DNA from: a virus
Reading direction: 5' to 3' (one strand)
Length of the DNA: 64,000 nucleotides
IMG/VR virus record: IMGVR_UViG_3300029922_000004
The notes under the pieces were generated by a model, which was not told the DNA's origin, did no database searches, and was given only the letters and a program-made list of their open reading frames with translations. Both the position numbers and the translations under genes were made by a program. This document shows, piece after piece, positions 14,731-39,540 of the stretch (position 1 is the first letter of the stretch; each line of letters opens with the position of its first letter).

Positions 14731-15600
14731 ATGAGTGATTATATATTGTGGTCAGCGTTAGAAATTAATATACTAACAAAACATGCTGGTCAAATGAGTT
14801 TTAGGGAAATGACTAAATTCTTCAATGGACGAACCGCGTCGAGTTTACAGAAAAAAGCTCTCAAGCTTGGTCTAACGAGCAAATGGAAGGCCACTAAAAA
14901 TACAGTCAATAAACATTTTTTTGATTTGCCTAATCTATTAAACTCATATTATATGGGTCACTTCGCGGCTGATGGGTATCTTAAATTTAGAGGGGGCAGC
15001 ACAGTATATGCTCTACAAATGAATACAAAGGACATAGAAATTATAAATAATTTTAAAAGAGATTGCGAATTTAGTGGCCCAGTGAGGTCTTATCAAAGAA
15101 AAAATTACAAAAAAGAAACCATGAAAGATGTTTCTTATATGTATATCTCAAACGTAACTGAATGGAGGGAGCCTCTTAAAAATAATTTTGGTATTATCCC
15201 CAATAAAACTTTAAGAATGTCTCCACCACCCCTAATGGATGAAAAATTTAAACACGCATATTTGATTGGTTATCTTGATGGAGACGGTTCTATTTTATTC
15301 GATAAAAAACTAGACAGAATTATTATAAAATATTACAGCAGCAACCTTAATATTATGAAATGGATTCATCAAGAGCTTACGTCTATTTTAACAAAATTAA
15401 ATTATAATTCTAGATTTACAATCACTAAAATTGAAAACTGTTATAGCCTTTGCCTTTTCGGTCGACTGGGAGCGGTAGTATTTAATTATCTAAAAGATAT
15501 TGATGTTCCTAAATTAAAACGTAAATGGTATAATCCAGATACTTTAGAATGTCTTGGAAGATACAAAGTGAAATACCCCGATTTGTTCAATAAAACCTAG
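14731..15600 (+). CDS. Free-standing LAGLIDADG homing endonuclease
   Basis: Motifs YMGHFAADGYL and LIGYLDGDGSI; N-terminal WSALEINIL...GRTASSLQKKA Myb/HTH-like segment; AT-rich. Confidence 0.85.
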   Translation: MSDYILWSALEINILTKHAGQMSFREMTKFFNGRTASSLQKKALKLGLTSKWKATKNTVNKHFFDLPNLLNSYYMGHFAADGYLKFRGGSTVYALQMNTKDIEIINNFKRDCEFSGPVRSYQRKNYKKETMKDVSYMYISNVTEWREPLKNNFGIIPNKTLRMSPPPLMDEKFKHAYLIGYLDGDGSILFDKKLDRIIIKYYSSNLNIMKWIHQELTSILTKLNYNSRFTITKIENCYSLCLFGRLGAVVFNYLKDIDVPKLKRKWYNPDTLECLGRYKVKYPDLFNKT

Positions 15601-16019: not shown

Positions 16020-16067
16020 TCCCCCGCCGATTAAGTGCTTTTGGATGGTCAGGGGAATCCGATTCTT

Positions 16068-16074
16068 GTGTAAT
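16068..16074 (+). promoter_or_regulatory. Putative late promoter motif GTGTAAT
   Basis: 9 nt before ATG 16084, which supports 16084 rather than 16045 as the start. Confidence 0.7.
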
Positions 16075-16083
16075 AGGATAGAC

Positions 16084-18681
16084 ATGAAGAATTTTTTAAT
16101 ATCGTTGCTTTTAATGGTGAGTTGTTTTACTGGTCTGGCGGGAACTTGGACCTCTTATCCGACGGTGACGAATTTGACTGGGCCGGAAACTTTTTTAACT
16201 ACTACCCCGAATCCCACTAATAATCAGCAGATTTCGTATGCGAATTTGGCTTCTGAGATACAGGCTGGAGGTTCAGCCACGGCGACGGCGGCGTCTTTCC
16301 TGTCTTCATCGAACCTCACGGTTGCAGCGACGAATCAGGCGGTTCTCACAGCCAACATCTACGCAATGCTGATTTCAAACGTGCTGAACTCTAAGATTGA
16401 TTTGAACAGCGGGAACGAAACGAATTTCACCTTGAGCACAAGCAATTCAATCACGGTGGCGGGCAATGCAGCGTTGGCAAATGTCATCACGAATCAAACT
16501 CCTAACACGTTTGTCCAGACGGCGACGAATGCCTTCAACGCGGCCACGGCGACGAATGTTATCAACAACGGCAGCACGCCATCTCTGTTTGTGGCGACCG
16601 TTGCCAATGGCGGCAATGATTCAAACATTGGTTCGCAGTCGTCTCCCTTTGCAACCGTTAACCATGCTGTGTCTGTGCTGTCTGGCCTCGGCGGCTCTGG
16701 AAGCATCTATATCGGTGGCGGGAATTACACGAATCAAATCATCAATGGGTCCTTGCTGAAAAATTTTCACATCAATGCGCAGGGAAATGCTCCGGTAAAA
16801 ATCATTGAGGGCGACCCTCTGAGCACTTGGACGCTGGTGAGCGGAAATGTTTATTCATGTCCGGTTAGCGGTCAGACATCGAACGATGTTGTGACACTGA
16901 TTGGACGTGGCGACCCGACTGCGGCCAACATGGGTATGCTGTTCGAGCAGGGCACTCCGCAGGGTTTCATTGACAATAATCAGATTGTGCCGATGCAGAT
17001 TCAACCCTCTGCCAACGCGCAGAACGGATGGATTACGAACCGCAATGACAACTATGCACTCTTGTATAACACGAATCTCGTGAACCTGACAGCCAATGGC
17101 GAATGGGCTTACACCAACAGCGGAGTTGGCAATGGCGGCACGGTATATGTCGTGTTTTCGGACGGTGGTGTCCCGAACAGTCGCACCGTCTATGTCATCT
17201 CAACGAACAATTTCATCTACAACTGCACTGGTTCAAATGAAGTTCAGGTGACTGGCATTGAGGTGGATTTTGGAAATAATGATTTTGATGTTTCATCCGC
17301 CGCAAAAGCGGAGTTCAACGGCTGCAAGGCCAGTGGTGGCTATGAAGGCATCCGCGCCAATCAGACAGGGGTTTTGAACATCAACGATTCGGAGATGCAG
17401 CAGTGCTACGATTGCGCCGTGGTGACAGAATACGGAACCGTTTTCAACGGAGCAGGAATGTATGCACACGACTCGGCCCGTGAAGGTTTTGCGCAGCATT
17501 ACAAGGTCGTGGCCAAAATCACGGACAGCGTCGGGGCATTCTGCGGCATTAATGGATTTGTGGATTTCGGGTCGAGCGGGACATATAACAACATCACGAC
17601 GATTTCCAACGGGACAGGCTATTCCATTTCAGCAGCGGCGCAGGGTCTTGGTGGTTACAAGGCAACAATTTCGAACTCCAAATTTTTGGGAGACCGCGTG
17701 GCGTCCGTCGCAACGAGTGGGACTAATACATCTGTGATTGTCAAAACCAGCAACCTCATGCCTAATCATGGCACTTTCTACTGGTATTATTACGCATACG
17801 GTGTCACAAATTACGCCGAGTTCGACAATTGCATCGGCTCTGGTCTGTGCAGCTATTATCTGGTTGACCCATCTGACAGCATCGTTTTCAATGCACTCAC
17901 CAACTCCTATGCTCTTGTTTCTCGGACGAACGCCACGTTGATTTACGGGACGGGTTCGCCAACTTATGTTGGCTACGCCGACCAAAACGGAAGCTCACCC
18001 ATCATCGGCCCGCTCACAATGTCAGGAGCGCAGGATTTTTCCACAAACTTTGTCATTGCCTCTACGGCCTCGACGATTGCCTCAAACGGCGGGAACGTCT
18101 ACGCCAACAATCTGGTTGCATCGAGCATAGGTGTTGCGGCAGGGTCAACCTTCGACTACCTCAATACATACATCGGCGACACGTCAATTTCGCAATCGTC
18201 CTCGTCCACATTGCAGGATAATTTCATTGGTGGATTTAACACAGGCACATTGGGAGGAGCGACAATTCCGAGCATGGTTGGGGATTTTATTTGGGCGGGA
18301 CACAACTACGCGACTGTCACAAACTCGCACAGTTGGGTCATGTCTGATGGGACGACATCAATTAATTCACTGTCAAACAATTACGCCCACTTCTACTACC
18401 AAAACGGTTATTTCCTTGACGGCGGGGCAATCACAGGTAACGGCGGCGGGTTGACGAACTTATCCACTCATGGCTTTGTCTATCTATCACATGGCAGTAA
18501 TCAAGTATCAACAGCAGCATTTGATACAAATAATCTTCCTATTTTAACATACGTCAGCACCAATGGGGTTTCAGCGCAGATTTTCTTAAATCCTTCAAAC
18601 TGGACGCAAAATGTATCATTTACAGTGTATAGCAGCAGCAGCACCGATACAAACCCATTTGCATGGCATATCATTCGATGA
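16084..18681 (+). CDS. Signal-peptide-bearing parallel beta-helix (pectin lyase-like) fibre/depolymerase-like protein
   Basis: Starts MKNFLISLLLMVSCFTGLA (Sec-type signal); VATVANGGNDSNIGSQSSPFATVNHAV is a typical beta-helix entry motif; GGAITGNGGGLTNL fibre motif near the C-terminus; GC-rich relative to flanks. Confidence 0.65.
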   Translation: MKNFLISLLLMVSCFTGLAGTWTSYPTVTNLTGPETFLTTTPNPTNNQQISYANLASEIQAGGSATATAASFLSSSNLTVAATNQAVLTANIYAMLISNVLNSKIDLNSGNETNFTLSTSNSITVAGNAALANVITNQTPNTFVQTATNAFNAATATNVINNGSTPSLFVATVANGGNDSNIGSQSSPFATVNHAVSVLSGLGGSGSIYIGGGNYTNQIINGSLLKNFHINAQGNAPVKIIEGDPLSTWTLVSGNVYSCPVSGQTSNDVVTLIGRGDPTAANMGMLFEQGTPQGFIDNNQIVPMQIQPSANAQNGWITNRNDNYALLYNTNLVNLTANGEWAYTNSGVGNGGTVYVVFSDGGVPNSRTVYVISTNNFIYNCTGSNEVQVTGIEVDFGNNDFDVSSAAKAEFNGCKASGGYEGIRANQTGVLNINDSEMQQCYDCAVVTEYGTVFNGAGMYAHDSAREGFAQHYKVVAKITDSVGAFCGINGFVDFGSSGTYNNITTISNGTGYSISAAAQGLGGYKATISNSKFLGDRVASVATSGTNTSVIVKTSNLMPNHGTFYWYYYAYGVTNYAEFDNCIGSGLCSYYLVDPSDSIVFNALTNSYALVSRTNATLIYGTGSPTYVGYADQNGSSPIIGPLTMSGAQDFSTNFVIASTASTIASNGGNVYANNLVASSIGVAAGSTFDYLNTYIGDTSISQSSSSTLQDNFIGGFNTGTLGGATIPSMVGDFIWAGHNYATVTNSHSWVMSDGTTSINSLSNNYAHFYYQNGYFLDGGAITGNGGGLTNLSTHGFVYLSHGSNQVSTAAFDTNNLPILTYVSTNGVSAQIFLNPSNWTQNVSFTVYSSSSTDTNPFAWHIIR

Positions 18682-23500: not shown

Positions 23501-24076
23501 ATGAAAAGCTGGAAACATATTCCTAGATTGCCGGGCGTTTATAAATTAACTAATAAAATTAATGGTAAAATTTATATTGGCAAGTCTATATCATTGAGAA
23601 GGAGATTAATGGAACATCAATACGAACGCCGTGATGCTTATCCAATAGAAAGGGCAATTAAAAAATACGGTATGGATAATTTTGAAATAGAAGTACTGCA
23701 TCAAGAAATAAATATAGACAACTTGTGTCTTTTAGCGATAGAATCCGCATATATTGAATTTTTCAATTCGACAGATAAAAACCTAGGATATAATGTCTTA
23801 CAGTTTGGAGGGGGAGATAGAACTGGTATTCCTCATTCGCAGGAAACGAAAAATAAAATCTCAATAGCGAACAAAGGTAAAGTATCACACAATAAAAGAC
23901 CCATCAAACAAATAAATATTACAACTGGAGAATTAATCAAAGTTTGGCCATCTATGAAAGAGGCCGCTGCTGGTATGGGTATTAGAAACTATCAGGAAAT
24001 ATACAGAGTATGTAAAAATATAAGACCTAGATGTCACGGATTTAAATGGCAATATGCCAAAGAGAAAAGTTTATAA
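23501..24076 (+). CDS. GIY-YIG homing endonuclease with NUMOD3/NUMOD1-like tail
   Basis: GVYKLTNKINGKIYIGKS...E...GYN; HSQETKNKIS and WPSMKEAA...IYRVC...GFKWQY. Confidence 0.9.
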   Translation: MKSWKHIPRLPGVYKLTNKINGKIYIGKSISLRRRLMEHQYERRDAYPIERAIKKYGMDNFEIEVLHQEINIDNLCLLAIESAYIEFFNSTDKNLGYNVLQFGGGDRTGIPHSQETKNKISIANKGKVSHNKRPIKQINITTGELIKVWPSMKEAAAGMGIRNYQEIYRVCKNIRPRCHGFKWQYAKEKSL

Positions 24077-24583: not shown

Positions 24584-25627
24584 ATGGCAAGAGAAAAAAT
24601 ATGTGGAATTTATGTGATAGAGGCCATGTCTGGAAATCCAGATAAGATAGGGTTTAAGTACGTTGGGCAATCTTTAAACTGTAATAGGAGATTACTTAGA
24701 CATCAAAATGAACTAAAATTACAAAAACATTATAATCCAAAATTGCAAAGATATTATAATAAGTATGGAGTGTATTCATTTAAATTCTATATCATTAAGT
24801 CATATTTACAAAAGGAACTTGATTTTTGGGAAAGATGGTGGATAAAATGTTTTAATAGTCAAGAAGAAGGTTTTAATTTAACGAGTGGTGGTCATAGTGG
24901 GGAAGCAGCGAGAAAACCAATAACGCTTCATAATATTTACACTGGTGAAATTAAATCTTTTAAATCACAAACAGAATTTGGAGAGCAATATCATGCCTCG
25001 AGCGCTAATCTAACGGCCCTCTTAAAAGGTAAACAAAAGACTATCAAAGGGTGGTGTCTGCCCCAAAATATATCCCTCTATAAACCACAGCAATATTCTC
25101 TATACCATTCAATGCACGGAAAAGTCATTGTGTGTGACCTGAAAGAATTTAGACAAAAATACAACATCGGATACCCAGAACATCTTACGGAATTATTATC
25201 TGGTAAACGTTACTCGTGCGAGGGGTGGAAATTAGAAAACGGAAGAGAAAGGGATAATGCAAACGCCCATAAAAGATTCCATTTTAAGTTAATTAACAAT
25301 TCTGGTGAAATAATAGAGGGATTTAATCAAACTGAGTGCGCTAAAAAAATAGGAGTAACCCACCAACTTCTTTGGAACGTCCTACATGGTAAAAACATAT
25401 CATGCGCTGGTTGGAGATTAGTCAATGGAAGAGAAAAAAGCAATGGCAATGCTAATAAGAGATTTAAGTTTAAAATCATAAACGCAACTGGAAAGATAGT
25501 AGAGGGGTTTAATCAGACAGAATGTGCTAATAAAATAAATATACCAGTTAGGCAATTAAATAAGATATTAGTAGGGCAACGAAAAACTTGTCATGGTTGG
25601 AAACTCTTAGAAAGAGAGTATAAGTAA
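24584..25627 (+). CDS. GIY-YIG homing endonuclease with tandem NUMOD1-like repeats
   Basis: CGIYVI...KYVGQS...HYNPKLQRYYNKYG...GFNLTSGG, followed by four related units each ending in GW. Confidence 0.9.
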   Translation: MAREKICGIYVIEAMSGNPDKIGFKYVGQSLNCNRRLLRHQNELKLQKHYNPKLQRYYNKYGVYSFKFYIIKSYLQKELDFWERWWIKCFNSQEEGFNLTSGGHSGEAARKPITLHNIYTGEIKSFKSQTEFGEQYHASSANLTALLKGKQKTIKGWCLPQNISLYKPQQYSLYHSMHGKVIVCDLKEFRQKYNIGYPEHLTELLSGKRYSCEGWKLENGRERDNANAHKRFHFKLINNSGEIIEGFNQTECAKKIGVTHQLLWNVLHGKNISCAGWRLVNGREKSNGNANKRFKFKIINATGKIVEGFNQTECANKINIPVRQLNKILVGQRKTCHGWKLLEREYK

Positions 25628-26732: not shown

Positions 26733-27383
26733 ATGGATAATCGCTTAAAACAGACCGGTGTATATCGCATAGTTAATGAAATGAATGGGCATTATTATAT
26801 TGGAAGTACATCTGTATCTTTTCATGTCCGTAAAAATAGTCATTTGCGGGAATTAAGAAAGAATACTCACGAAAACCGACATCTACAAAATGCATTTAAT
26901 AAATACGGGGAAGAGGCTTTTACTTGGGATATAGTTGAGATTGTCCCGCCAGAGCAGTGCTTGACTAGAGAGCAGTGGTATTTAGACAATAAACCGTGCG
27001 AATATAATATTTGTCGTACGGCAGGGTCAACCCGTGGAGTAAAAGCTTCTAAAGAAACGCGAGCTAAAATTAGCGCCTCTAAAATAGGTAAAAAAGATTC
27101 TCCAAAAAGAATAGAACAAAAATCTCAACATATGTATGAAAGAAATTTAATTGGCGAAAGAAATTATATGTTTGGTAGAAGCGGTATACTCAATCCAGCG
27201 TCAAAACCTACCGTTTACTTTAATTCTAATACTAATATGATACATGAATTTGAATCTGTGACGGCTTTGGCAAAATTTTTAGATATTAGTGTTCAATATA
27301 CGAAAGATATATTAAAGGGGCAAAAAACTGGTAACTTTTTAAAAAAAACTGGAATTAAAATACAATATAAGGAGGTAATTTGA
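26733..27383 (+). CDS. GIY-YIG homing endonuclease (NUMOD3-like)
   Basis: TGVYRIVNEMNGHYYIGST...HENRHLQNAFNKYG...YNIC..AGS; SKETRAKISASKIG. Confidence 0.9.
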   Translation: MDNRLKQTGVYRIVNEMNGHYYIGSTSVSFHVRKNSHLRELRKNTHENRHLQNAFNKYGEEAFTWDIVEIVPPEQCLTREQWYLDNKPCEYNICRTAGSTRGVKASKETRAKISASKIGKKDSPKRIEQKSQHMYERNLIGERNYMFGRSGILNPASKPTVYFNSNTNMIHEFESVTALAKFLDISVQYTKDILKGQKTGNFLKKTGIKIQYKEVI

Positions 27384-28275: not shown

Positions 28276-29175
28276 ATGCCCATCACACGCACAGCGTATT
28301 ACGCACAAACTGGTAGAATCACAACTCCTAATGGCACTTATCTTTTGCCGATAAGTTCCGCAAACGTGGAAGTTTCAAGTCCTGTGGAAGCGGTTCTTAG
28401 TTTCGGTCAATTCGGCTCTCTGAATCAGGCCCAAGCAAATCTCACGACTTGTAAATCCTCTTGGAAAATGCACATGGGTTCAGGAGTTAATATTACTGGG
28501 ATTTCGGCCACCGTTTTGAATGATTTGATTAATTGTACTCTTACTGGTTCCCCGTTTACCGTAGCGGTCGGCCCCGGTGGATTTACTATGACTGGCATTC
28601 TTGACAGTCTGGCCCTAGATATTTCAATGGGTGGGCTGGGAATGTGTGACTTGGGTTTTGCCGGAATCGGTCATCCTTATATTTCTCCTCCGACTAACCA
28701 AGGAACTGCGGTTAGTACGACCTACTCGATTTCACCAATTTCTACCATGTCGATATCCACAGGAGCCGGGGCTTTGAGTGGCGTTTTTGCTTCTTCGTTG
28801 AAATTCTCTTATTCATTACCTACAGATGTTCTGAGTGCTTTGGGAGATAATCCTGATGCATTCCAAGGCAACATGGCTAGTCAAATCGCTTCTAAAGCCC
28901 CCTACAAGGCAACTTTTTCCATAGATGGTGTGGGCGTAGACCCAACTACTATCGCGACCGGACTAGCGGGCCTAGCATACAATATAGGTGACATTTCTGT
29001 GACTCTTCCTCACGCTAAAATTATCTCTCGTGGATTTACAAACGCGGCTGGACAGGTTGCAGCGACGTTTAATTATACACTGGAAGATACAAGCGCGACT
29101 CTCGGCACTGTTGCTCTCGCGGCTTATGCTGACGTTAATACCAGCATGGGAGTTACTCCGACTTACGGCGCATAA
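28276..29175 (+). CDS. Major tail tube protein
   Basis: 299 aa with two similar beta-sandwich halves, own promoter and terminator; precedes chaperones and tape measure. Confidence 0.7.
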   Translation: MPITRTAYYAQTGRITTPNGTYLLPISSANVEVSSPVEAVLSFGQFGSLNQAQANLTTCKSSWKMHMGSGVNITGISATVLNDLINCTLTGSPFTVAVGPGGFTMTGILDSLALDISMGGLGMCDLGFAGIGHPYISPPTNQGTAVSTTYSISPISTMSISTGAGALSGVFASSLKFSYSLPTDVLSALGDNPDAFQGNMASQIASKAPYKATFSIDGVGVDPTTIATGLAGLAYNIGDISVTLPHAKIISRGFTNAAGQVAATFNYTLEDTSATLGTVALAAYADVNTSMGVTPTYGA

Positions 29176-29653: not shown

Positions 29654-30499
29654 ATGGAAAAAACACCACAAAAATACCTCTACGAAACTTTTGTCAACAA
29701 GGAAATTGAAGAAAAAATCGTTGAAAAACGCCAAGAGAACGGCGCGGAAGTCGAAGTCTCTAAGACCGTCAAAACTCTTAAACCCGTCAAACTCGCCATC
29801 CTAAAACCTAATCGCAAAAAGTTCAAAGAGGCGGAAATCTTTTACGCGCAGAGCCTTTCATCCTATCTGAAAAAGGGTTTGCTTCCTCACTCCCTAGTTT
29901 CAAAACGCTATCTTAACGACGGCGGGCCGTTAAGCGAAAACGCCAAAAAGGTCGTCACGGTCATGCGCGAAAATTATACGAGTCTTCAAGTGGAATATTT
30001 TGGGATGAAGTCGCCTCTAACCGCCGAACAAACTAAACGTCGCGGGGAAATCCTCGTAGAAATGACCGACATTAATAAAGCGTTGCAGGAAATCGAAAAC
30101 AGTTACTCTGAGATTTTCGAGAATACCGCCGAAGCCAAGAGCCGCAATGATTTGATTGAGTGGTGGATTCTAACCCTTAGTTTAATTGAGGAAGAGAAGG
30201 ATGGCAAAAAGAATTACGTTCCGTTTTTCCCCGGCGAAGACACCGATGCTAGGATGGCTAAATTGGAAGAGCTTGAGGCTTTGGAAGATGATTTCACTAA
30301 TGAAGTTATTAAGAAGTTTTCTTATTTTATTAGTTTCTGGAGTCGCGCGGGGCTTGACGTGAAATTGGAAGATTTCAAATCCGCCGAAGAGAACTACAAT
30401 CTCAAAGTCACGGACTATAAGACAGAAGAAGCTTCGCCCGAACCCGCCGTAGAAACCAATACGGGTGATAAAGTAGAGGTAGAGTCCCCCGTCGTATAA
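29654..30499 (+). CDS. Putative tail assembly chaperone 1
   Basis: Acidic helical protein between tube and tape measure. Confidence 0.6.
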   Translation: MEKTPQKYLYETFVNKEIEEKIVEKRQENGAEVEVSKTVKTLKPVKLAILKPNRKKFKEAEIFYAQSLSSYLKKGLLPHSLVSKRYLNDGGPLSENAKKVVTVMRENYTSLQVEYFGMKSPLTAEQTKRRGEILVEMTDINKALQEIENSYSEIFENTAEAKSRNDLIEWWILTLSLIEEEKDGKKNYVPFFPGEDTDARMAKLEELEALEDDFTNEVIKKFSYFISFWSRAGLDVKLEDFKSAEENYNLKVTDYKTEEASPEPAVETNTGDKVEVESPVV

Positions 30500-30500
30500 T

Positions 30501-31352
30501 GTGGACAAGAAGGTAATATCGGAATTGGATTGTCTTAAGTTGGTTTATTTTGAGATAATTGATGGTTATTCTCCCTGCTCCGACCTCGATTGCTACATTA
30601 AACACTTCTCCGAAAAAGAAAGCCATTTACTTCTACAAAAGAAAATCGAACTCCAAAAATTCTACTCTGAGGGTGGCGTTCCCCTCGAAGAAGAACTCCT
30701 AAAACAGCGCATAGAATCAGGGGATTGGTCTAAAGACAAAGAGGAACAAATCCTTCAATTAAAAGTTGACATCACGGATGCTGAAAACGGGCTTCATACC
30801 ATTCTCCCCGCACAACGCGGATTTCTTGAGGGTATACTCGCGGGCAAGCAAAAAGAATTAGGAGAACTTCGCTACGAAAGAAAAAACGTCCTAGGAAGAT
30901 GCGTAGAAGATTTAGTTGACGAGGATGTCAATGATTATGTATCCTATCTCTCTTGCTATAAAGACCCATCGCTTACTGAGCATATTAAAAAATCTTACCA
31001 AGACTTTCAAGAGCTTGAACAAGAGGAGACTAATAAGATAGCCATTATACTAAGTGAGAATTACAAACGATTCTCCGAGGAAAATCTTAAATTTTGTTCT
31101 GTTATGCCATTTTTCTTGAATAGATTCTCTTACTGCAAGGAGGATATACAAAGTTTTCTAGGAACTCCTGTTAATCAGCTTACCCATAATCAAAATTACC
31201 TTTTCTCAATGGGCGTTAGAAATCTTAATGTCCTTCAAAAAGCCGAGGGTAGTCCTCCTGACCTAAACCTCAACGCCACGCCTTTGTCAATCTCCAAATG
31301 GTACGACATCCAATACTCCATACAACTAGGTAAATCTAAACAGAAGAGTTGA
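30501..31352 (+). CDS. Putative tail assembly chaperone 2
   Basis: Acidic helical protein directly before the tape measure; distantly similar layout to the previous gene. Confidence 0.55.
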   Translation: MDKKVISELDCLKLVYFEIIDGYSPCSDLDCYIKHFSEKESHLLLQKKIELQKFYSEGGVPLEEELLKQRIESGDWSKDKEEQILQLKVDITDAENGLHTILPAQRGFLEGILAGKQKELGELRYERKNVLGRCVEDLVDEDVNDYVSYLSCYKDPSLTEHIKKSYQDFQELEQEETNKIAIILSENYKRFSEENLKFCSVMPFFLNRFSYCKEDIQSFLGTPVNQLTHNQNYLFSMGVRNLNVLQKAEGSPPDLNLNATPLSISKWYDIQYSIQLGKSKQKS

Positions 31353-31422: not shown

Positions 31423-34400
31423 ATGGCTGGAGAATATACACTAGATGTGTTGGTGAATCCTATCGAGAACCCCGCTGCGGCAAGAGCAATGGGGTCGAGA
31501 ATGGGAGACTCGTTCTCTGATGGATTTAATAAAGCCGCCAAACAACCCCTCGGCAGAATCACTTCTGACGTTTCTCAGTTCCAAAGGTCAATCGAAGCGT
31601 CCAACGCCCGCGTTATCGCGTTCGGAGCATCCGCAGGAAGCATTTATTTGGTTCAGGCGGCGTTTAGAAAACTTCTTTCCGACGCGGTTATTGTTCAAAA
31701 GAGCCTTACTGACATTAACGTAATCTTGGGGCTTGGTTCGACGGCCATGAAGTCGTTTTCGAATGAAATGTTCAAAGCCGCCTCTCAAACCGGCCAAACC
31801 TTTGAAACCGCCGGGAAAGTAGCGCTAGAATTCGCCCGTCACGGTGTTTCTGCGTCAGAAACAGCCAAACGTATGACTTCGGCGATGCAACTGATGAGAA
31901 TCTCTGGATTGGGGGCTACAGATGCCGTAAACTCGATTACAGCCGCGATTAACGCTTTTAGCAAGGAAGGCATCACTTCGGCGGATATCGTCAACAGGCT
32001 GACCGCCGTGGATACTAAATTCGCCGTTTCAGCGCAAGACTTGGCAAAAGCTGTTCAGCGTGTCGGTGCGACCGCCGAAGACGCGGGGGTGCGTTTTAAT
32101 CAACTCTTAGGCTTCGTAGCCGCCGCTCAAACCGTTACTGCTCGTGGTGGTGCTGTTATCGGTAACGCTTTCAAATCCATATTTACGAGACTGGCTCGTC
32201 CACAGGTTTTAGACGACTTGGAAAGTATAGGCGTTACTACCAAAACGGCGGCGGGGCAGATTTTGCCAATGGTGACTATTTTGAAGAATTTGGCGTCTCA
32301 ATATGACCATTTGAGCTACTCCCAAAAATCTTTCGTATCTGAAGCTGTCGGCGGCGTTTATCAGGTCAACATTTTAAAAGCCTCTCTCGCTGACTTGGGT
32401 AACGGTCTTTCCATTTTTGACAAAGCAACAATGGCCGCAGAACAGTCCACGGGGCTGATAGACAAACGTATGTCTATGCTTAATGAGACTATTTCTTCCA
32501 AACTAAATACCTCGGTTTTGGAGATTACCAAATTATTTGCGAATTTTAGCACGATATCATTCGGCTCTTCTTCTAAAAGTGGTCTGGATGGAATGAATCA
32601 GGAAATCGCTTCTATTAGTAAATTGTTCGAAGATATTGTTCCTGATGATTCCGTCGGAACTAAAATCGGTAAAACTTTAGCTGTCGGAATAGTTAAAGGA
32701 TTGGGGGACATAGTATCAGGTCCGGGTATTCAATTAGCAATGGCTTTATTGGTGAAGTCTTTCGGGACATTGGGAACTTTCGCTATTCAAGCTGGTAGGG
32801 AATTTTTGGGGGCTAATAGCCAAGCAGAAAGAATGGCCGCTATTCAGAAAAGTATTAGTTCGTTTATCCTAAGTAACGCTGAAGCTCAAACTGTTTTTAA
32901 TAATCAATTATTGACTGGAATCCAACGAACGGAAAAGATAGTCCAGATGTGGATGCAAGCCAACGTCGCCAGCGCGACTTTCCACGCACAAGTCAAAGGA
33001 ATAGCTGAAAAAGGTGCAGTATTGGCTTCTCCTAATATCGGCGGATATCAAAGTAAAGCGTCTGGTTACGTCCCCGATTTCGCATCAGAAGAATCAGAGG
33101 CCCGTTCGCTTGGAGCATTAAATCCTAAAGCCGAATGGGGCAAAGGAACAATCGGCGGCAAGAAGTTCATTAAAAATGACCAAGAAATTGAAATCCCCGG
33201 ATTTGGAAGAAATGGAGACTCGGCGGTTATACCGATGTATGCAGATGGATTTTACCCCGTCCATCCCAAGGAGCCATATAGTGTTTATGACACACAGAAT
33301 CGAACAATCGTCAGGAAGGGTTTTTATGAGAACATTAGGGGGTTGAGAAGAACCTCTGAAAATAAAAATCAAGAATATGGAGCTTATAGATACACGGTAT
33401 TACCTCATTCGGAACTAGAAAGAAGAAGTTTTGAGGGAATGGCTAATAATCCCAATGCCTCCATGTCAGTTGGTAGTAAAACCATCTCTGGAAATGATAT
33501 ATTAGAATATTTTAATCAGAAAGAAAATACAAGAAAGGCTAATTTATGGGGTGGTCAATATGCCGATGGATATGTCCCACCACTGATGGGGCTACATGTT
33601 AAGCCCAGCGGGAATCCATATAGAGATAAGAATGCTCGTAGATTTAATGGTCTTTTAGGCGAATTAGGTACTGGAATAGCTTCGCCAGATGACTCTATTA
33701 GAGGACCGACATCTAAAATATTTGAGAAATTATCTTCAGAATTTTTAAGGAACACCCTCTCGCAACAGGGCGCAGGAGCGATTGAGAGCAGAATTTTAGG
33801 GAAACCAATTAGTCCCCAGCAATTCAAGCAGTTTGAGAAACTATATACTGGCCTAATAAAAGAACCGTATAATGCAGACGAATTCCATAATTATAAAAAA
33901 CCGCTTTACGGTGATAGTTTTCCGGGTTACGATAGCATACATACCTTTTCTACTCATAACGAAGAGCTTGCTAAGAAATTAGGAGTGAACGTCGGAGACC
34001 TAGTGACGCTTGCCCTACAAAGTAAAGGTGGTAAGAATTTGAGGATTGCAGATTTCGCTACCATGGACGATGGCGATTCCGTTCTGCAAAAAGAGGGGTA
34101 TGATAAACCCAGCGTTAGGGCGCTGGCGTTTAGAGATGCAACCACTCTTCCCGGTAATGTACTATATGACGAAATGAATCGTAAAGCCGCAGGATTTCTT
34201 CCATTAACATTTAAGAAAACCTTCAATAGAACCTTCGGAACTCATCGCCTTTTTGGTATGAACGGTAGCGACCCCGTTGGTGATATCGAATATAGCGGCT
34301 CAAAGATGAAAGAGATAGAAGGTTTTGATATCTACGACAAATATCGCGGCAAAGGTCTCGCTAAACAGTTTTATCAAGCATTAGGTAAAGGAAGTATTAA

Positions 34401-37400
34401 GGGAACTATTCTTCCGAATACTGACTCCGAAGGCAATACATTTTTCCCCCAATTAAGCCGCGCCAGCGTTGCAAAAGATTCCTATGTTCTCCACTATGGG
34501 TATATGGACAAAAATCAGAAAATTAGCGTCGCCGACTTTAAGAAACTCATTTCCGCTCATAAAGGGGATAGCCAATTCTGGGAAGATAACTCGTTTGACC
34601 TTCATACGCAACATGCCGCTGGTTTTATTCCTAATTTCGCCAGTCAGAATATCATGGATTCAGTATTTGTCGCAGCTAGTAAAATGCCGAACTCTGCTAA
34701 CATTATCGAAAAACTAAAGGAAGGCTCTGGTCTTTCTGATGAATCTTTCTTAAAAGCGGCTAAGATTTTAGGGGTGAATATGGGTGGAGGGTCGCCAGTC
34801 AATCCGAATTCCATGTGGGATAATATCAACCAAGCATTTAATTCAAAGAAACACGATGATTGGTGGAAAAATGTCGACGTAAAACTCAAAGCGAGAGACG
34901 CAAAGTTCGGCTATCCAATTACAGACAACGAACAAACAAACATTAATTTTGTACAGGGGTTATTCAAAAGAAAATTCTCCTCCTTCTCGAATGTTAAGGA
35001 TATGATGGACCATCGGGAGTACTCTGGTGAACAAAACAATGAAACTGGTGCTTTTGGCACGGGTCTTGATTTCAATTCTGACCATGATACGTTACTAAAC
35101 AAATTTAAAGAAAAATATTTTAGAACGGTAGTTAGCAGAACAAAACCCCAAAATACAAATCTACATTTCTCAATGTTTGGAGCAGAATTCGGATTAGACG
35201 ACGATTTTAAAGATTCGGATATGTCTTATGGGAGACAATCTTCTTTAGAGAAGTTTTTTGCGAAAAGAATGAATAAATACTCTTCTAGAGGGAGATTTTC
35301 GAGTGGATTTGTTCCTAATTTTTCACCTCTTTCAGACGCGGTCAAAAGAGAGATGAGCGCGGGCTATTCTTCATCACAAATCCGTATTGATAAAAGCCCC
35401 TCTTTGATATCTTCGTCTAACCCTAGTGGATTAGGTGTTTATAATTCAACCGAAGGGTCCCTTTCCAATGGAATAACTCTCGCTCAAAGCGCGGGTATTA
35501 ATCCAAAAACCAAAGGTATGGCGGCTGGATTCGTTCCAAACTTCGACATGGGTAATATCGGGATGTCAATGATGCTTGGTATTTTTCAAGGCAGCGTTAC
35601 CGACGTATCTAAAAAGCTTAACTTCCTATCTTATGGATACGACAAACAAATCGAACATCTCCGCAAAATCAACGAAGAATATACCGCCATCGAGAATGAT
35701 ATCAAAGTAAAAGGCAGCGCCACTTATAATGGTCAGACTTATACAACTGGTGGTAGAGGGTCGAAATTCAGAGAAGATTTCAAAGCGGCTAACGCCGGTT
35801 CAGGTTTGACCTTCTATCCAGACGCGGTAAAAAAGCAGGAACAGGATTACGGCCAGTATATAGATAAAAAATCCGCCACTCAACAAAAAATCAAAGGCTT
35901 CGCATTTCAATCGATGTTCGGCGCTCCTATAGCAGCAGAAACATTATCAAGTTCGGCGAGTAGTTTGGGTTTTGCAAATGTCGCCAAAGGTTTGGAGACT
36001 TTCTCCGGCGGTCTTACTTTGGCCTCACAGATGTTGTCTTTATTACCGAATAAGTTGGGTTCTGCGTTGGCAGCAGGAGAATTAATTACCTCGTTGGGGA
36101 GTTCAATATCAGTGGCGGTAGCTAAAGTCGGAACCTACGAAAAAGCATTGGATGTCCAAAGCACGGCATTAGAAAGAATGAGTAGTGCTTCTAATACGGT
36201 CTTGGACTCTTATAACAAACTCAACCAATTATATAATAGCAGTACCTCCACTTTTCAAGATTTTATAACCCAACAGAAGAGACTTTCAGAGGCTTTACAG
36301 GATTTAGGAGCGAGTCTCCCAAATGGAAAGGGAGCCGATTTAGTAAGGCAAATTACTTCTGCCGGAAGCGATGAAGATAGACGCACAGCAGTCGCTCAAG
36401 CACAGGACGCACAACAACAAGAAAGAAACGTCAACGCCACAAAATTGGCTTTAGCCCAAGCGAAAGTTAAAAGTTCTTTCTTCGGAATTGGCGTGGGTAA
36501 TTCTTTCACCGCCAACAACAAAGACGATATCATCGGCAAGAGACAACTATTAGAAGATTCGGCAAAAACGATGGGAGAAGTGGCAGAAAGCAGCATGTCG
36601 CGCTCAATAATGTCCAGACTGACCTCTGGGACTCTGACTGACCGGGATATTTCTGCTATAACCAATCGAGCGGAACAAGGGCCAGATAATAAAGGCAATG
36701 TTCTTGGATTACAGGGGGATTCTTTAAAAACTGCGCTGGCTCAATTAAAATATAACTTGGAGCAATTCAAACTTCCTTCGGGGATTTCTCCAGATGTTTG
36801 GGCTAAACGTAATGAGGATTTCGCTTCCGCGTCACAAGCAGAAATAGCTTTACGCAACAGATACAATCAAGAACTTCAAAATGCCCTTGCTAAAGGAGCC
36901 ATAGTCTCCGACTACCTTTATAAAAGTGCTACAGCCGGAGAAGAAATTAGAAGCGGCAAGGCTTCATACGAAACCCAAAAATCAGGATTCAATGTCAGGC
37001 TCGCCGGACTAACAACCAATGAAGCGGGTATGATTGGTTTAAACGCCCAACAAAAGTCAAGAGAAGCGAATGACGAAATAACGAAAAAGCGAAATCTCAA
37101 TTTTATTAAGGGCAATTCGGATATTAATGGTTTTATCAGTAAGACTATCGCCGAAACTTTCGCTGGAAAACTTAAGTCCGTTCAGGACTCTACTGCTGGC
37201 ATTAGTCCGCAGAAACAGGCCGAGGCCGCTTATCTTGCCAAACAACAAATAGCATTCGCCAAAGACCCCAAAGGCTTAATAGATATTGCTAATAATCCAG
37301 AAGCTTTTGCTCAAAAATTTCTTGGTGGAACTGCTAAAGACGTAATTGGCAACCCGAACAGCGGTATTACCAACGAAAAAGAATATGATGTTTTATCAAA

Positions 37401-39540
37401 TTCTCTTTCTAGTCTCGCTAAAACGCCGGAGTTTTACGCCAAACTTCAAGATATTCTAACCAATACACAAGCAATCGAAAAAGAGGGCTTTTTAAGACAG
37501 GCTGGTATTAGTGACGAACAGTTAGAGCAGTGGAAAGAGGTTAATTTTAAGGACTTGGCAAAGTCTTTGTCGGGTTTAAGTTTATTGGACAAAGGAGGGG
37601 CTAGGACAAAAGCTAGGGAAATTAAACAAGCCGAATGGCTTGAACAAAATGCCAAAGACCCAATAACTAGGGGTCGCGGAGCGAGAACTTTGTTGGAAAA
37701 CATGACTTCAGCAGAAAGGGATTATTCAAACCCTTGGGTCAAAAAGTTAGCCAGCGAAGTCTATGCTGGAGAGGTTACTGGGGATAAGTTGGCCAAGGGC
37801 AACGGAGCATTTGCTAACTATACGAATGCTGCCGACCAAAATGACCCTAATAAAGCTGATGCAACAGCAGCAGGATTCGATAACTCTAGGGCCTTCGCTC
37901 AAACATTTAGTATGGGCTTTAGGAATGGACCAAAAATAAGCCTTGGAGATACCAATCCAGCCGGAGCGCCGCCTTCCATAGATATAACTGATTTACAGGC
38001 TAATATTAAAGTTGCTGATACTAACCTTGATACATTTGGGAAAAACGTAGGACTTGTTGGGTCTCAATTAGCGACTTTGCTACAACAACTTAAAACTTTA
38101 GAATCAACGCCGCGACCCAAACCTCCCACTGGAAATCCAAACACTACACCACCACCGATATCAACCGACGGCTCAATACATTCGTTTTTGGCTAGACATG
38201 GAGAAGGAATAGCTGGAACGATTGGGACTGGACTAGCGTATGGATTTGGTTCCGCAGTCTTTAATAGGGGTGGGACCTTATTAAAGGGTCCAATGAGCAA
38301 AGTCGGTCAATGGGGAAAGAATGCTTATAAAGAATTTAGAGAGGGAAAAGTTGCTGTTCCAGAGGTGAAAATTCCAACATCCGCTGGAATCCCATCGGGT
38401 TCTTCAACAATAGTTACTCCGATGACAGAAGCTGAACAACAGGCTAGAGAATTAAAATTAAGAAAAATAGAAACCTTTGCCAGCCGAACCTCTAAAAGTA
38501 ATGACCCATCAATGGCCGCCCAACATGAGGTAGCGAAAGATTTACACGCAGAGCAAACAGCTAAATATGAAAAACAATTAGAAGACGAGGCAAAATACTC
38601 TAAAGATTTTTCCAAAAATGATTACTCCCACATTCTTAATGCCCCCAAAAAACCAATGTTTTCAAACGCTCCTTTCGCTCAGTTTAAGGGCGACGAAGCA
38701 ACTAAAATATTTAATAAAATTCCACAATCTAGGCTTTTGCCGACGGTGACTAAGGCTACGTCTGCTATGGGAAAATATGCAGCACCGCTTTTACGAACAC
38801 TAAACCCTCTAATGAAGTATGGCGGAAAAGCATTGGGTGTCGCTGGAACTTTGGCTAGTGGATATGATGCTATTCAGGATTTTAGACATGGAGATTATTG
38901 GGGCGCGGCTGGAAACGCAGCAACTACAGCGGCGGGATTTACTGGCGTTGGACGAGCGTTTAACGCAGGATATTATGGTGGGCAAGCTGTCGGAGATGCT
39001 GCCACTTGGTTAGGCGGTCACAAGAACAATGCTCTAGCCGCACAATATGGTCAAAATGCCCAAAACACTTTCGATAATACTAACGCAAGTACCGGCGACA
39101 AAGCCACAAGCCTAGCTTATTTTAACGCTCGAATTAAGAGCTACCAGAATTCCTTAAATAGTTACGGTAATCCATTTAGGGGCGGCGGTAATAGTTTTAA
39201 CCCAGATATTGTTGAAAAACTAAAACAACAAATCTCAAACTTGGAAAATCAAAAGAACTCTCTTTATAATTCCCCCAATAAACCAAAAACTGAGTCTGCG
39301 TCTCCGGCGGAAGGTCCAGCACCCGCTGATGATGATACACAATCCCAAGATAATCTTACAACTTCAATGAATACTTTGGGAGATAAAATCACTGCTTTGA
39401 CAAATGCCAAATCACAAGTAGGGGTTGATATTAATGTGAACTCGGCGTTTTTAACTGCAACGATTAATAGTGCCGTAGGAAATGCTTTCGCTAGACTGAG
39501 TGGGAAGCCGAATCCCGTACAAGTGACTCAACCGGCTTAA
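31423..39540 (+). CDS. Tail tape measure protein with internal cassette array
   Basis: 2705 aa; TP901-type N-terminal domain (SFSNEMFKAASQTGQTFETAGKVALEFARHG...GAVIGNAFKSIFTRL); Ala/Gly-rich helices; central region with non-TMP domains. Confidence 0.9.
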   Translation: MAGEYTLDVLVNPIENPAAARAMGSRMGDSFSDGFNKAAKQPLGRITSDVSQFQRSIEASNARVIAFGASAGSIYLVQAAFRKLLSDAVIVQKSLTDINVILGLGSTAMKSFSNEMFKAASQTGQTFETAGKVALEFARHGVSASETAKRMTSAMQLMRISGLGATDAVNSITAAINAFSKEGITSADIVNRLTAVDTKFAVSAQDLAKAVQRVGATAEDAGVRFNQLLGFVAAAQTVTARGGAVIGNAFKSIFTRLARPQVLDDLESIGVTTKTAAGQILPMVTILKNLASQYDHLSYSQKSFVSEAVGGVYQVNILKASLADLGNGLSIFDKATMAAEQSTGLIDKRMSMLNETISSKLNTSVLEITKLFANFSTISFGSSSKSGLDGMNQEIASISKLFEDIVPDDSVGTKIGKTLAVGIVKGLGDIVSGPGIQLAMALLVKSFGTLGTFAIQAGREFLGANSQAERMAAIQKSISSFILSNAEAQTVFNNQLLTGIQRTEKIVQMWMQANVASATFHAQVKGIAEKGAVLASPNIGGYQSKASGYVPDFASEESEARSLGALNPKAEWGKGTIGGKKFIKNDQEIEIPGFGRNGDSAVIPMYADGFYPVHPKEPYSVYDTQNRTIVRKGFYENIRGLRRTSENKNQEYGAYRYTVLPHSELERRSFEGMANNPNASMSVGSKTISGNDILEYFNQKENTRKANLWGGQYADGYVPPLMGLHVKPSGNPYRDKNARRFNGLLGELGTGIASPDDSIRGPTSKIFEKLSSEFLRNTLSQQGAGAIESRILGKPISPQQFKQFEKLYTGLIKEPYNADEFHNYKKPLYGDSFPGYDSIHTFSTHNEELAKKLGVNVGDLVTLALQSKGGKNLRIADFATMDDGDSVLQKEGYDKPSVRALAFRDATTLPGNVLYDEMNRKAAGFLPLTFKKTFNRTFGTHRLFGMNGSDPVGDIEYSGSKMKEIEGFDIYDKYRGKGLAKQFYQALGKGSIKGTILPNTDSEGNTFFPQLSRASVAKDSYVLHYGYMDKNQKISVADFKKLISAHKGDSQFWEDNSFDLHTQHAAGFIPNFASQNIMDSVFVAASKMPNSANIIEKLKEGSGLSDESFLKAAKILGVNMGGGSPVNPNSMWDNINQAFNSKKHDDWWKNVDVKLKARDAKFGYPITDNEQTNINFVQGLFKRKFSSFSNVKDMMDHREYSGEQNNETGAFGTGLDFNSDHDTLLNKFKEKYFRTVVSRTKPQNTNLHFSMFGAEFGLDDDFKDSDMSYGRQSSLEKFFAKRMNKYSSRGRFSSGFVPNFSPLSDAVKREMSAGYSSSQIRIDKSPSLISSSNPSGLGVYNSTEGSLSNGITLAQSAGINPKTKGMAAGFVPNFDMGNIGMSMMLGIFQGSVTDVSKKLNFLSYGYDKQIEHLRKINEEYTAIENDIKVKGSATYNGQTYTTGGRGSKFREDFKAANAGSGLTFYPDAVKKQEQDYGQYIDKKSATQQKIKGFAFQSMFGAPIAAETLSSSASSLGFANVAKGLETFSGGLTLASQMLSLLPNKLGSALAAGELITSLGSSISVAVAKVGTYEKALDVQSTALERMSSASNTVLDSYNKLNQLYNSSTSTFQDFITQQKRLSEALQDLGASLPNGKGADLVRQITSAGSDEDRRTAVAQAQDAQQQERNVNATKLALAQAKVKSSFFGIGVGNSFTANNKDDIIGKRQLLEDSAKTMGEVAESSMSRSIMSRLTSGTLTDRDISAITNRAEQGPDNKGNVLGLQGDSLKTALAQLKYNLEQFKLPSGISPDVWAKRNEDFASASQAEIALRNRYNQELQNALAKGAIVSDYLYKSATAGEEIRSGKASYETQKSGFNVRLAGLTTNEAGMIGLNAQQKSREANDEITKKRNLNFIKGNSDINGFISKTIAETFAGKLKSVQDSTAGISPQKQAEAAYLAKQQIAFAKDPKGLIDIANNPEAFAQKFLGGTAKDVIGNPNSGITNEKEYDVLSNSLSSLAKTPEFYAKLQDILTNTQAIEKEGFLRQAGISDEQLEQWKEVNFKDLAKSLSGLSLLDKGGARTKAREIKQAEWLEQNAKDPITRGRGARTLLENMTSAERDYSNPWVKKLASEVYAGEVTGDKLAKGNGAFANYTNAADQNDPNKADATAAGFDNSRAFAQTFSMGFRNGPKISLGDTNPAGAPPSIDITDLQANIKVADTNLDTFGKNVGLVGSQLATLLQQLKTLESTPRPKPPTGNPNTTPPPISTDGSIHSFLARHGEGIAGTIGTGLAYGFGSAVFNRGGTLLKGPMSKVGQWGKNAYKEFREGKVAVPEVKIPTSAGIPSGSSTIVTPMTEAEQQARELKLRKIETFASRTSKSNDPSMAAQHEVAKDLHAEQTAKYEKQLEDEAKYSKDFSKNDYSHILNAPKKPMFSNAPFAQFKGDEATKIFNKIPQSRLLPTVTKATSAMGKYAAPLLRTLNPLMKYGGKALGVAGTLASGYDAIQDFRHGDYWGAAGNAATTAAGFTGVGRAFNAGYYGGQAVGDAATWLGGHKNNALAAQYGQNAQNTFDNTNASTGDKATSLAYFNARIKSYQNSLNSYGNPFRGGGNSFNPDIVEKLKQQISNLENQKNSLYNSPNKPKTESASPAEGPAPADDDTQSQDNLTTSMNTLGDKITALTNAKSQVGVDINVNSAFLTATINSAVGNAFARLSGKPNPVQVTQPA
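33058..35544 (+). repeat. Seven dispersed xxG[FY]xP peptide repeats delimiting cassettes in the tape measure
   Basis: ASGYVPDF 33058, ADGFYPV 33241, ADGYVPP 33562, AAGFLPL 34186, AAGFIPNF 34615, SSGFVPNF 35299, AAGFVPNF 35521. Confidence 0.85.

Follow-up and report, generated by a model that had tools for sequence, protein, structure and literature searches.

A giant phage tape measure protein with an array of exchangeable modules fenced by a conserved junction peptide

The subject of this analysis is the tape measure protein (TMP) gene of the virus record IMGVR_UViG_3300029922_000004 of IMG/VR, of which a stretch of 64,000 nucleotides (the window) was analysed on one strand. The phage is uncultured and probably comes from freshwater; the window belongs to a contig of 186 kb, and contigs of the family encountered in the analysis measure 80-206 kb. 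The gene (31423-39540, +) is an open reading frame (ORF) of 2705 amino acids (aa), and its product belongs to the TP901 family by virtue of a PhageMin_Tail domain (PF10145) at aa 118-303 (31774-32331, +), which lies inside the conserved N-terminal 545 aa and scores 82.4 bits against a cut-off of 33.2, while PHROG TMP families are matched at E values of 1e-39 to 1e-11. The protein contains no Cys at all, whereas Cys makes up 1.14% of the other ORFs of the window, which gives a probability of about 4e-14 for its absence from 2705 aa; a set of 129 giant TMPs related to it has, taken together, 3 Cys among 336,567 residues. As pb2 of T5 is also free of Cys, this absence is not peculiar to the protein described here, and it looks like a trait of tape measures in which the inserts share. 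The neighbouring ORFs have no Pfam or PHROG match, and the gene order around the TMP is kept in the closest relative (locus L002, whose TMP is P0002), with about 76% nucleotide identity over the tail block.

Between the conserved N-terminal domain and the variable C-terminal ruler part there is an insertion zone (aa 546-1374), within which the pattern [AS][ASD]G[FY]xP is found exactly seven times (aa 546, 607, 714, 922, 1065, 1293 and 1367; nt 33058-35544). No further copy exists elsewhere in the TMP, the 1330-aa C-terminal part included, nor in any other ORF of the window. Following the coding strand (+), the array begins with copy 1 (ASGYVPDF; 33058-33081), near-canonical and with 19.2 bits on a position-specific scoring matrix (PSSM) of the family, and continues with s0 (53 aa; 33082-33240), the conserved first module, where a hidden Markov model (HMM) of the short modules matches aa 545-612 at 37 bits. 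Copy 2 (ADGFYPV; 33241-33264; PSSM -8.4 bits) is decayed, its counterpart in P0002 being the canonical ADGFVPNF, and it leads to cassette s1 (99 aa; 33265-33561); copy 3 (ADGYVPP; 33562-33585; 4.5 bits), likewise decayed, leads to cassette s2 (200 aa; 33586-34185). Copy 4 (AAGFLPL; 34186-34209; -2.7 bits) has decayed by a 5-aa deletion in which the 'NFAD' preserved by other carriers of the same cassette was lost, a deletion that the closest relative shares, and behind it stands cassette s3 (135 aa; 34210-34614), the module with a predicted GNAT fold. The three remaining copies are canonical: copy 5 (AAGFIPNF; 34615-34638; 32.5 bits), followed by cassette s4 (220 aa; 34639-35298), predicted to be helical; copy 6 (SSGFVPNF; 35299-35322; 28.0 bits), followed by the short module s5 (66 aa; 35323-35520; 96 bits with the HMM), which is nearly universal as last module; and copy 7 (AAGFVPNF; 35521-35544; 27.1 bits), which closes the array.

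The modules s0 and s5 are distant paralogs, and the four large cassettes have no similarity to one another (best pairwise BLASTP E value, 0.11). In composition the latter are about twice as aromatic as their surroundings, with 11-18% of F, W, Y and H versus 6.8% in the N-terminal and 7.9% in the C-terminal part. Thus, what a preliminary description of this DNA had proposed from the letters alone, that is, a Cys-free TMP of 2705 aa interrupted by seven copies of a short peptide with four mutually unrelated large segments between them, agrees with the results at each of these points.

Right after the array, where the variable C-terminal 1330 aa begin, an apolar stretch (MGNIGMSMMLGIFQGSV; 35548-35598, +) can be read from the sequence; it remains below a Kyte-Doolittle peak threshold of 1.2, and its apolar counterparts in the related proteins P0123 and P0124 also come after the last motif. 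Further downstream, the distal C-terminal part (aa 1750-2705; 36670-39540) can be aligned with only one relative, at 55% aa identity, and it evolves faster than the inserts (ratio of nonsynonymous to synonymous change, dN/dS, 0.145).

When aa 540-1380 were used as query, 315 giant proteins of 1.6-4.4 thousand aa were retrieved, and among the matches listed nearly all of 120 relatives carry PF10145. In the 129 related giant TMPs on which the motif statistics are based, the form G-x-[IVLMF]-P-N-[FLY] occurs 667 times against an expectation of 0.006 per protein (the chance expectation of the family core G-x-[IV]-P-N-[FL] is likewise 0.006 per 2705 aa), and the number of copies in a protein ranges from 0 to 11, usually from 2 to 11. 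The information is confined to about nine residues (positions -3 to +6), with the consensus [FYAM]-[AS]-x-G-[FYH]-[IV]-P-N-F-[ANS], in which P, N and F are near-invariant; the flanks are unconserved, resemble linkers and are rich in G, K, N, P and S. Only four of the seven copies in the present TMP match the family PSSM well: copy 1 with 19 bits, and copies 5, 6 and 7 with 27-32 bits. The last copy of the array is canonical in all 125 of the proteins compared (NF in 120, NY in 5). None of the relevant papers in the literature searched contains the motif string. A likeness of [IV]-P-x-F to the C-terminal peptide of FtsZ or to the SSB tip was considered and dropped, as the motif lacks the neighbouring residues by which those peptides are defined.

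The arrangement of homology along the protein follows the motif closely. In a coverage profile built from 119 homologs, about 114 of them cover aa 50-600, and directly after copy 2 the coverage falls from about 100 to 0-5; s3 is covered by 11-14 homologs and s4 by 1-5, and from copy 6 on, over s5, the figure is back at 116, to drop once more after copy 7. Inside the arrays, 51.5% of the ends of high-scoring segment pairs, which are not independent of one another, lie at most 5 aa from a motif, as against 7% of random points, and the median distance from alignment end to motif is 5 aa versus 44 aa for random points. On the DNA, homology to L002 ends at 33252, inside copy 2, and starts again at 34210, the first base after copy 4. 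The 551 cassettes found between motifs make up 143 families, of which 84 have a single member; between close relatives, both the order and the content of the cassettes differ, and s3 takes varying positions in the arrays of other proteins, always bounded by the motif. The ends of the chain are steadier: a module of the s5 type is the last in 108 of the 129 TMPs, and one of the s0 type is the first in 43. These alignments show that modules are gained, lost and exchanged among the relatives and that the peptide is where the breakpoints lie, and they bear out the earlier expectation that the number and identity of the cassettes vary while the flanks are conserved, since the differences fall at the motif and the flanks, like the short modules at either end of the array, are retained.

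It was also proposed at the outset, as one of several possibilities, that the peptide is a recombination-junction signal. As a description of where the homology of relatives breaks this holds, on the DNA and protein levels alike, and the same breakpoints are what a DNA-level recombination site promoting cassette exchange would predict. However, codon use at each motif position is that of the whole gene (24 distinct genes with 127 motif copies): Gly is encoded by GGA, GGT, GGC and GGG in 41, 40, 9 and 9% of cases in the motif versus 37, 31, 22 and 11% gene-wide, Asn by AAT in 78% versus 74%, and the three canonical copies of the present gene differ from one another at silent sites. The conserved stretch, moreover, is only some 18-27 nt long with several free third positions. 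A signal in the DNA is therefore largely excluded, and we consider a site of this kind highly improbable; the freedom of the synonymous codons shows instead that the selection acting on the motif is on the peptide. In summary, this TMP carries a motif-delimited array of exchangeable modules whose motif is selected as protein and not as DNA.

The modules themselves are confined to proteins of this class. An exhaustive phmmer search of aa 615-1292 against 1.84 billion representatives returned 16 hits, all of 1700-3360 aa, of which 13 have a Pfam or PHROG annotation as TMP and three (P0125, P0126 and P0127) were judged to be TMPs from their length and shared cassettes only. Cassette s1 has a relative in one other protein, the TMP P0123 (49-51% identity), aa 769-919, which make up the second half of s2, form a sub-module common to six other TMPs, s3 is found in 11-14 and s4 in eight only. 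A profile search with s3 found no protein of 79-291 aa. Hence the description of the cassettes as foreign, made in the first reading of this DNA, is not supported, as they are found only in giant TMPs. The search of aa 615-1292 against metagenome contigs gave no relative, none of 50,697 phage records was matched by the array in tblastn, and the motif and the modules s0 and s5 are present in no phage record of the INPHARED collection.

Three observations on individual cassettes can be added here. In s2 (aa 783-919; 33769-34180) the elements F-E-K, then G-Y-D, then x-K-G-G are kept in the homologs from P0002 and P0003. In P0123 (locus L030; aa 556-740) the motif ahead of cassette s1 is degenerate and contains an insertion (GGFSVPNAA), and on its other side the cassette joins an s5-like module directly, with no motif between them. 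Finally, a single-protein scan of 185,579 species genomes had as its sole match L036 (SIBX01000034.1; 5021 bases), a contig binned with a metagenome-assembled genome of Candidatus Paceibacterota from a deep Lake Baikal metagenome, which is probably a mis-binned phage fragment and no evidence of a host.

Silent sites are near saturation in comparison with L002 (proportion of synonymous differences, pS, 0.6-0.8), and the dN/dS values obtained are 0.074 for s4, 0.058 for s5 and 0.014 for s0 (98% aa identity to P0002; pS 0.40), next to 0.085 for the N-terminal domain and the already cited value for the distal C-terminal part. Judged by these ratios, the cassettes are functional coding sequence under purifying selection. 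This bears on the explanation according to which the inserts would be filler that lengthens the ruler, with no action in the host, and the motif only a conserved linker that breaks helices, a remnant of an ancestral repeat unit. That the cassettes occur in TMPs only and have no free-standing relatives would suit such an origin, as would the lack of a recognisable enzyme family for most of them and the distant paralogy of s0 and s5, which suggests the duplication of a repeat unit. Against it, purifying selection on s3 and s4 equals that on the N-terminal domain and exceeds that on the C-terminal ruler, the near-invariance of P, N and F goes beyond the needs of a mere linker, and s3 has a predicted GNAT fold with a conserved motif A. 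Given this selection and this fold, a pure spacer is unlikely, and we hold the filler explanation as a whole to be improbable.

The prediction of a GNAT acetyltransferase fold for s3 is drawn from several sources that point the same way. Motif A of these enzymes (R/Q-x-x-G-x-G/A) is present as RGKGLA at aa 975-980 (within 34345-34365), and both loop glycines as well as the following A-K are invariant in an alignment of eight members of the s3 family, seven of which have sub-threshold Pfam matches in the GNAT clan (the best at 7.8e-4). The homologous cassette of P0039 (31% identity; E 6e-15) passes PF00583 with 25.6 bits against 20.7. A sequence profile search of the PDB with s3 returned only the GNAT YycN, at E ~0.4, while the same search with s0 and s5 returned nothing. 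Two AlphaFold2 models were made, one of aa 918-1300 (s3 and s4) and one of the s5 module; alignments into which full-length TMPs or fragments of several domains had entered were excluded from folding, since fragments are drawn to the repeated motif and the alignment goes wrong. Over most of s3 (aa 926-1066) the predicted local distance difference test (pLDDT) is 70-88, with dips to 62-69, and Foldseek retrieves with this model almost only GNATs (top hits at E 1.7e-3 to 1e-2, probability 0.99-1.0). In the VIA comparison the first 45 entries are all GNAT-type acyltransferases (GCN5, RimI, Naa50/60 and others), with Z of 6.9-8.1 and a root-mean-square deviation of 2.5-5.3 Å over 97-119 aligned residues; as a VIA Z below 8 is middling by itself, the assignment is carried by the uniformity of the hits and by the sequence evidence. 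The first suggestion that the large segments look globular is thus borne out for at least one of them, a folded domain of enzyme type.

The other modules are less easily placed. Apart from PF10145, Pfam detects nothing in the whole TMP (in the cassettes nothing at E values up to 10, except a weak GNAT hint); s1 and s2 match neither Pfam nor PHROG, and a Pfam search with 22 short modules gave no consistent result. Cassette s4 is modelled as helices at pLDDT below 50 from a shallow alignment, and the ESM Atlas offered no usable match for it. For s5 a small alpha/beta fold is predicted (H-E-E-H; pLDDT 74.7), with no structural relative in the fold searches (Foldseek against the PDB and BFVD, E >1; a best Z of 2.7 VIA-wide). 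In P0053, a related TMP of 4034 aa, there is a VanY D-Ala-D-Ala carboxypeptidase domain (aa 3280-3362), which is located in the C-terminal part past the last motif, outside the array fenced by the motif.

Within the two models, the decayed copy 4 and copies 6 and 7 are of low confidence and outside the folded cores (copy 6 within the low-pLDDT residues 1-12 of the s5 model), and the beginning of copy 5 still belongs to the confident end of s3, whereas from its P-N-F onward the pLDDT is below 50 (model residues 150-159). This placement fits a linear motif lying in linkers, and two roles for such a motif have to be weighed. On the one hand, the peptide may be a signal for assembly or docking, recognised by a tail chaperone, by the lumen of the tube, or serving to keep three chains in register at the bulky inserts, so that the modules stay joined. 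A short linear motif repeated in flexible linkers is well suited to multivalent binding, scans of the TMP and of a number of ORFs revealed no protease, the last copy, beside the apolar stretch, is always canonical, and s0 and s5, next to motifs, are the most constrained parts. However, the 1330-aa C-terminal part would likewise need to be chaperoned and threaded and contains no motif, the number of copies varies from 0 to 11 between proteins, and copies decay without loss of the gene. All in all, we see docking as rather unlikely.

On the other hand, the peptide may be a processing site at which the TMP is cut. We prefer this possibility to docking because the motif stands in linkers at every domain boundary and is absent from the long C-terminal part, because the cutting of tape measures has a precedent, and because a GNAT would need to be free in the cytoplasm to obtain acetyl-CoA; the attribution is nevertheless tentative and, in our estimate, somewhat less likely than not. 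T5 and lambda have TMPs that are cut inside the particles by a catalyst that is not known; no other tape measures are known to undergo cutting, and in lambda its site is not known either (PMC12617516). The cut in pb2 of T5 follows R1127, with a hydrophobic stretch on one side and an enzyme domain on the other, and yields pb2* and pb2C (Linares et al., 2023; PMC10038345). The protein described here resembles pb2 as a Cys-free TMP with an enzyme-type domain, the cut of T5 falling in a linker beside the hydrophobic stretch, and the T5 site (NSFVPR|AE) has F-V-P in common with the G-F-V-P-N-F-A of the array motif. It differs in that T5 has one site, an Arg in the place of the invariant Asn, and a muralytic peptidase instead of a GNAT. 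A homology to the T5 cut region was considered and rejected, given that the likeness is reduced to three residues (FVP), with a negative PSSM score and no HMM match; it is a lead and not evidence. If the register of T5 is applied, it may be speculated that the cut would be made between the invariant Asn and Phe, and, as a further speculation, the pattern of F, Y or L followed by A, N or S would also fit a cut after Phe.

If these elements are put together, the best explanation as a whole would be that of a TP901-family TMP with a chain of exchangeable modules, in which the peptide is a processing signal and the modules are delivered, an explanation that, in our estimate, has an even chance of being correct. 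Its steps could have the following form: (i) the insertion zone would be a chain of independently folding modules, proper to TMPs, opened by s0 and closed by s5 and held together by flexible linkers that carry one conserved peptide; (ii) the modules would ride in the lumen of the tail as part of the TMP and would leave the tail with it at infection; (iii) the peptide would most likely act as a processing signal that directs the division of the TMP into several fragments, in the manner of T5 and lambda, and, copies 2-4 being decayed, the units released in this phage would be s0+s1, s2+s3, s4 and s5; (iv) and finally, the GNAT module s3 would act in the cytoplasm of the host, since a GNAT needs acetyl-CoA. 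A more far-reaching form of this idea, in which the giant TMPs are polyproteins cut at the peptide, whether by a protease or by self-cutting at the invariant Asn, and load an exchangeable set of enzymes, here a GNAT acetyltransferase, into the lumen of the tail to release them into the host as separate proteins before the DNA, seems to us doubtful.

Several facts weigh against the explanation just given. Copies 2-4 are decayed in this TMP, and as individual copies can decay in this way, none of the junctions is indispensable by itself. Scans of the TMP and of neighbouring ORFs detected no protease domain. A recognised fold is available for only one of the four large cassettes, and s3 itself is below the Pfam cut-off (PF14542, 12.5 bits versus 30). 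The cut window of T5 ranks second of 1210 in pb2 on the family PSSM, yet with -11.1 bits, as opposed to +27 to +32 for true copies, and the HMMs of the s0 and s5 families have no match to pb2 (1100-1160). There is also a question of space, as three copies of folded domains of 135-220 aa would exceed, side by side, the lumen of a tube of about 4 nm. As for the TMP P0031, which was apparently split naturally at the motif, the split proved to be an artefact of N gaps in the scaffold.

The array can be set beside other systems in which a long protein carries additional domains. With the TMPs of the TP901-1 family, the present protein shares the N-terminal PF10145, the great length, a helical C-terminal part rich in Gly and Ala, and, probably, a position in a block of tail genes; the cultured relatives, by contrast, reach only about 25% identity, in the PF10145 region alone, and have no array. 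The TMP of mycobacteriophage TM4 reportedly contains embedded enzyme motifs that act at infection (work of Piuri and Hatfull in 2006). The likeness with mycobacteriophage TMPs lies in the presence of domains with functions other than that of a ruler; they have single peptidoglycan-hydrolase motifs and no fencing peptide, and no cell-wall hydrolase domain was detected by Pfam in the TMP studied here. Among bacterial toxins, those of the MARTX type carry arrays of effectors in one polypeptide, which are released by an internal cysteine protease domain. They are similar to the array in their variable row of domains, shuffled between strains, with short processing sites between them, and different in being secreted by bacteria and not part of a phage tail, besides the fact that no protease domain is detected in this TMP. 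Polyvalent proteins are giant polypeptides delivered with the virion in which several variable domains are united, and processing is believed to divide them into units (Iyer et al., 2017; PMC5512222). Those proteins, however, are packaged in the head and lack a common junction peptide, the cited work makes no mention of tape measures, and none of their hallmark domains, the processing MPTase peptidase included, was detected in this TMP with Pfam. The Sle1-type effectors of the contractile injection systems of actinobacteria derive from TMPs, are packed in the tube and have exchangeable domains (Nagakubo et al., 2026; PMC13277306); they possess one C-terminal functional domain and no motif-fenced array, and they belong to a contractile injection system and not to a phage. 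Enzymes embedded in TMPs, TMPs that are cut, polyvalent proteins and effectors derived from TMPs are thus already known, and what is new is the junction peptide that fences swappable modules.

With respect to the rest of the window, two ORFs of about 280 aa each are situated directly upstream of the TMP gene (29654-30499 and 30501-31352, +), one base apart and in different frames. They are a candidate pair of tail chaperones, with no family match for either; upstream of the second, its frame stays free of stops for no more than 18 nt, a distance that includes a run of CCCCC, and no frameshift site has been established. Together with 28276-29175, they are the candidates for the chaperone and tube genes. 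Three genes for homing endonucleases of GIY-YIG/HNH type (23501-24076, 24584-25627 and 26733-27383, +) are scattered among the structural genes, where there is also a further endonuclease gene (14731-15600, +). The GIY-YIG genes of L002 are at other positions, and because the positions differ these genes look mobile. An 878-aa ORF (16045-18681, +) has at its end the C-terminal domain of a K1 capsule lyase (PF24146, 27.7 bits versus a cut-off of 27), and its product may be a fibre or a depolymerase.

What the TMP array offers, in the first place, is a defined sequence: hundreds of rulers with a near-invariant junction peptide of nine residues, which can be tested for cutting, docking and release. 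If the modules are delivered, the long tails of phages would carry an exchangeable cargo of protein, and this would bear both on the conflict between phage and host and on the engineering of tails for the delivery of proteins. If, in addition, the giant TMPs were indeed polyproteins, the long-tailed phages would possess a programmable route for protein delivery.

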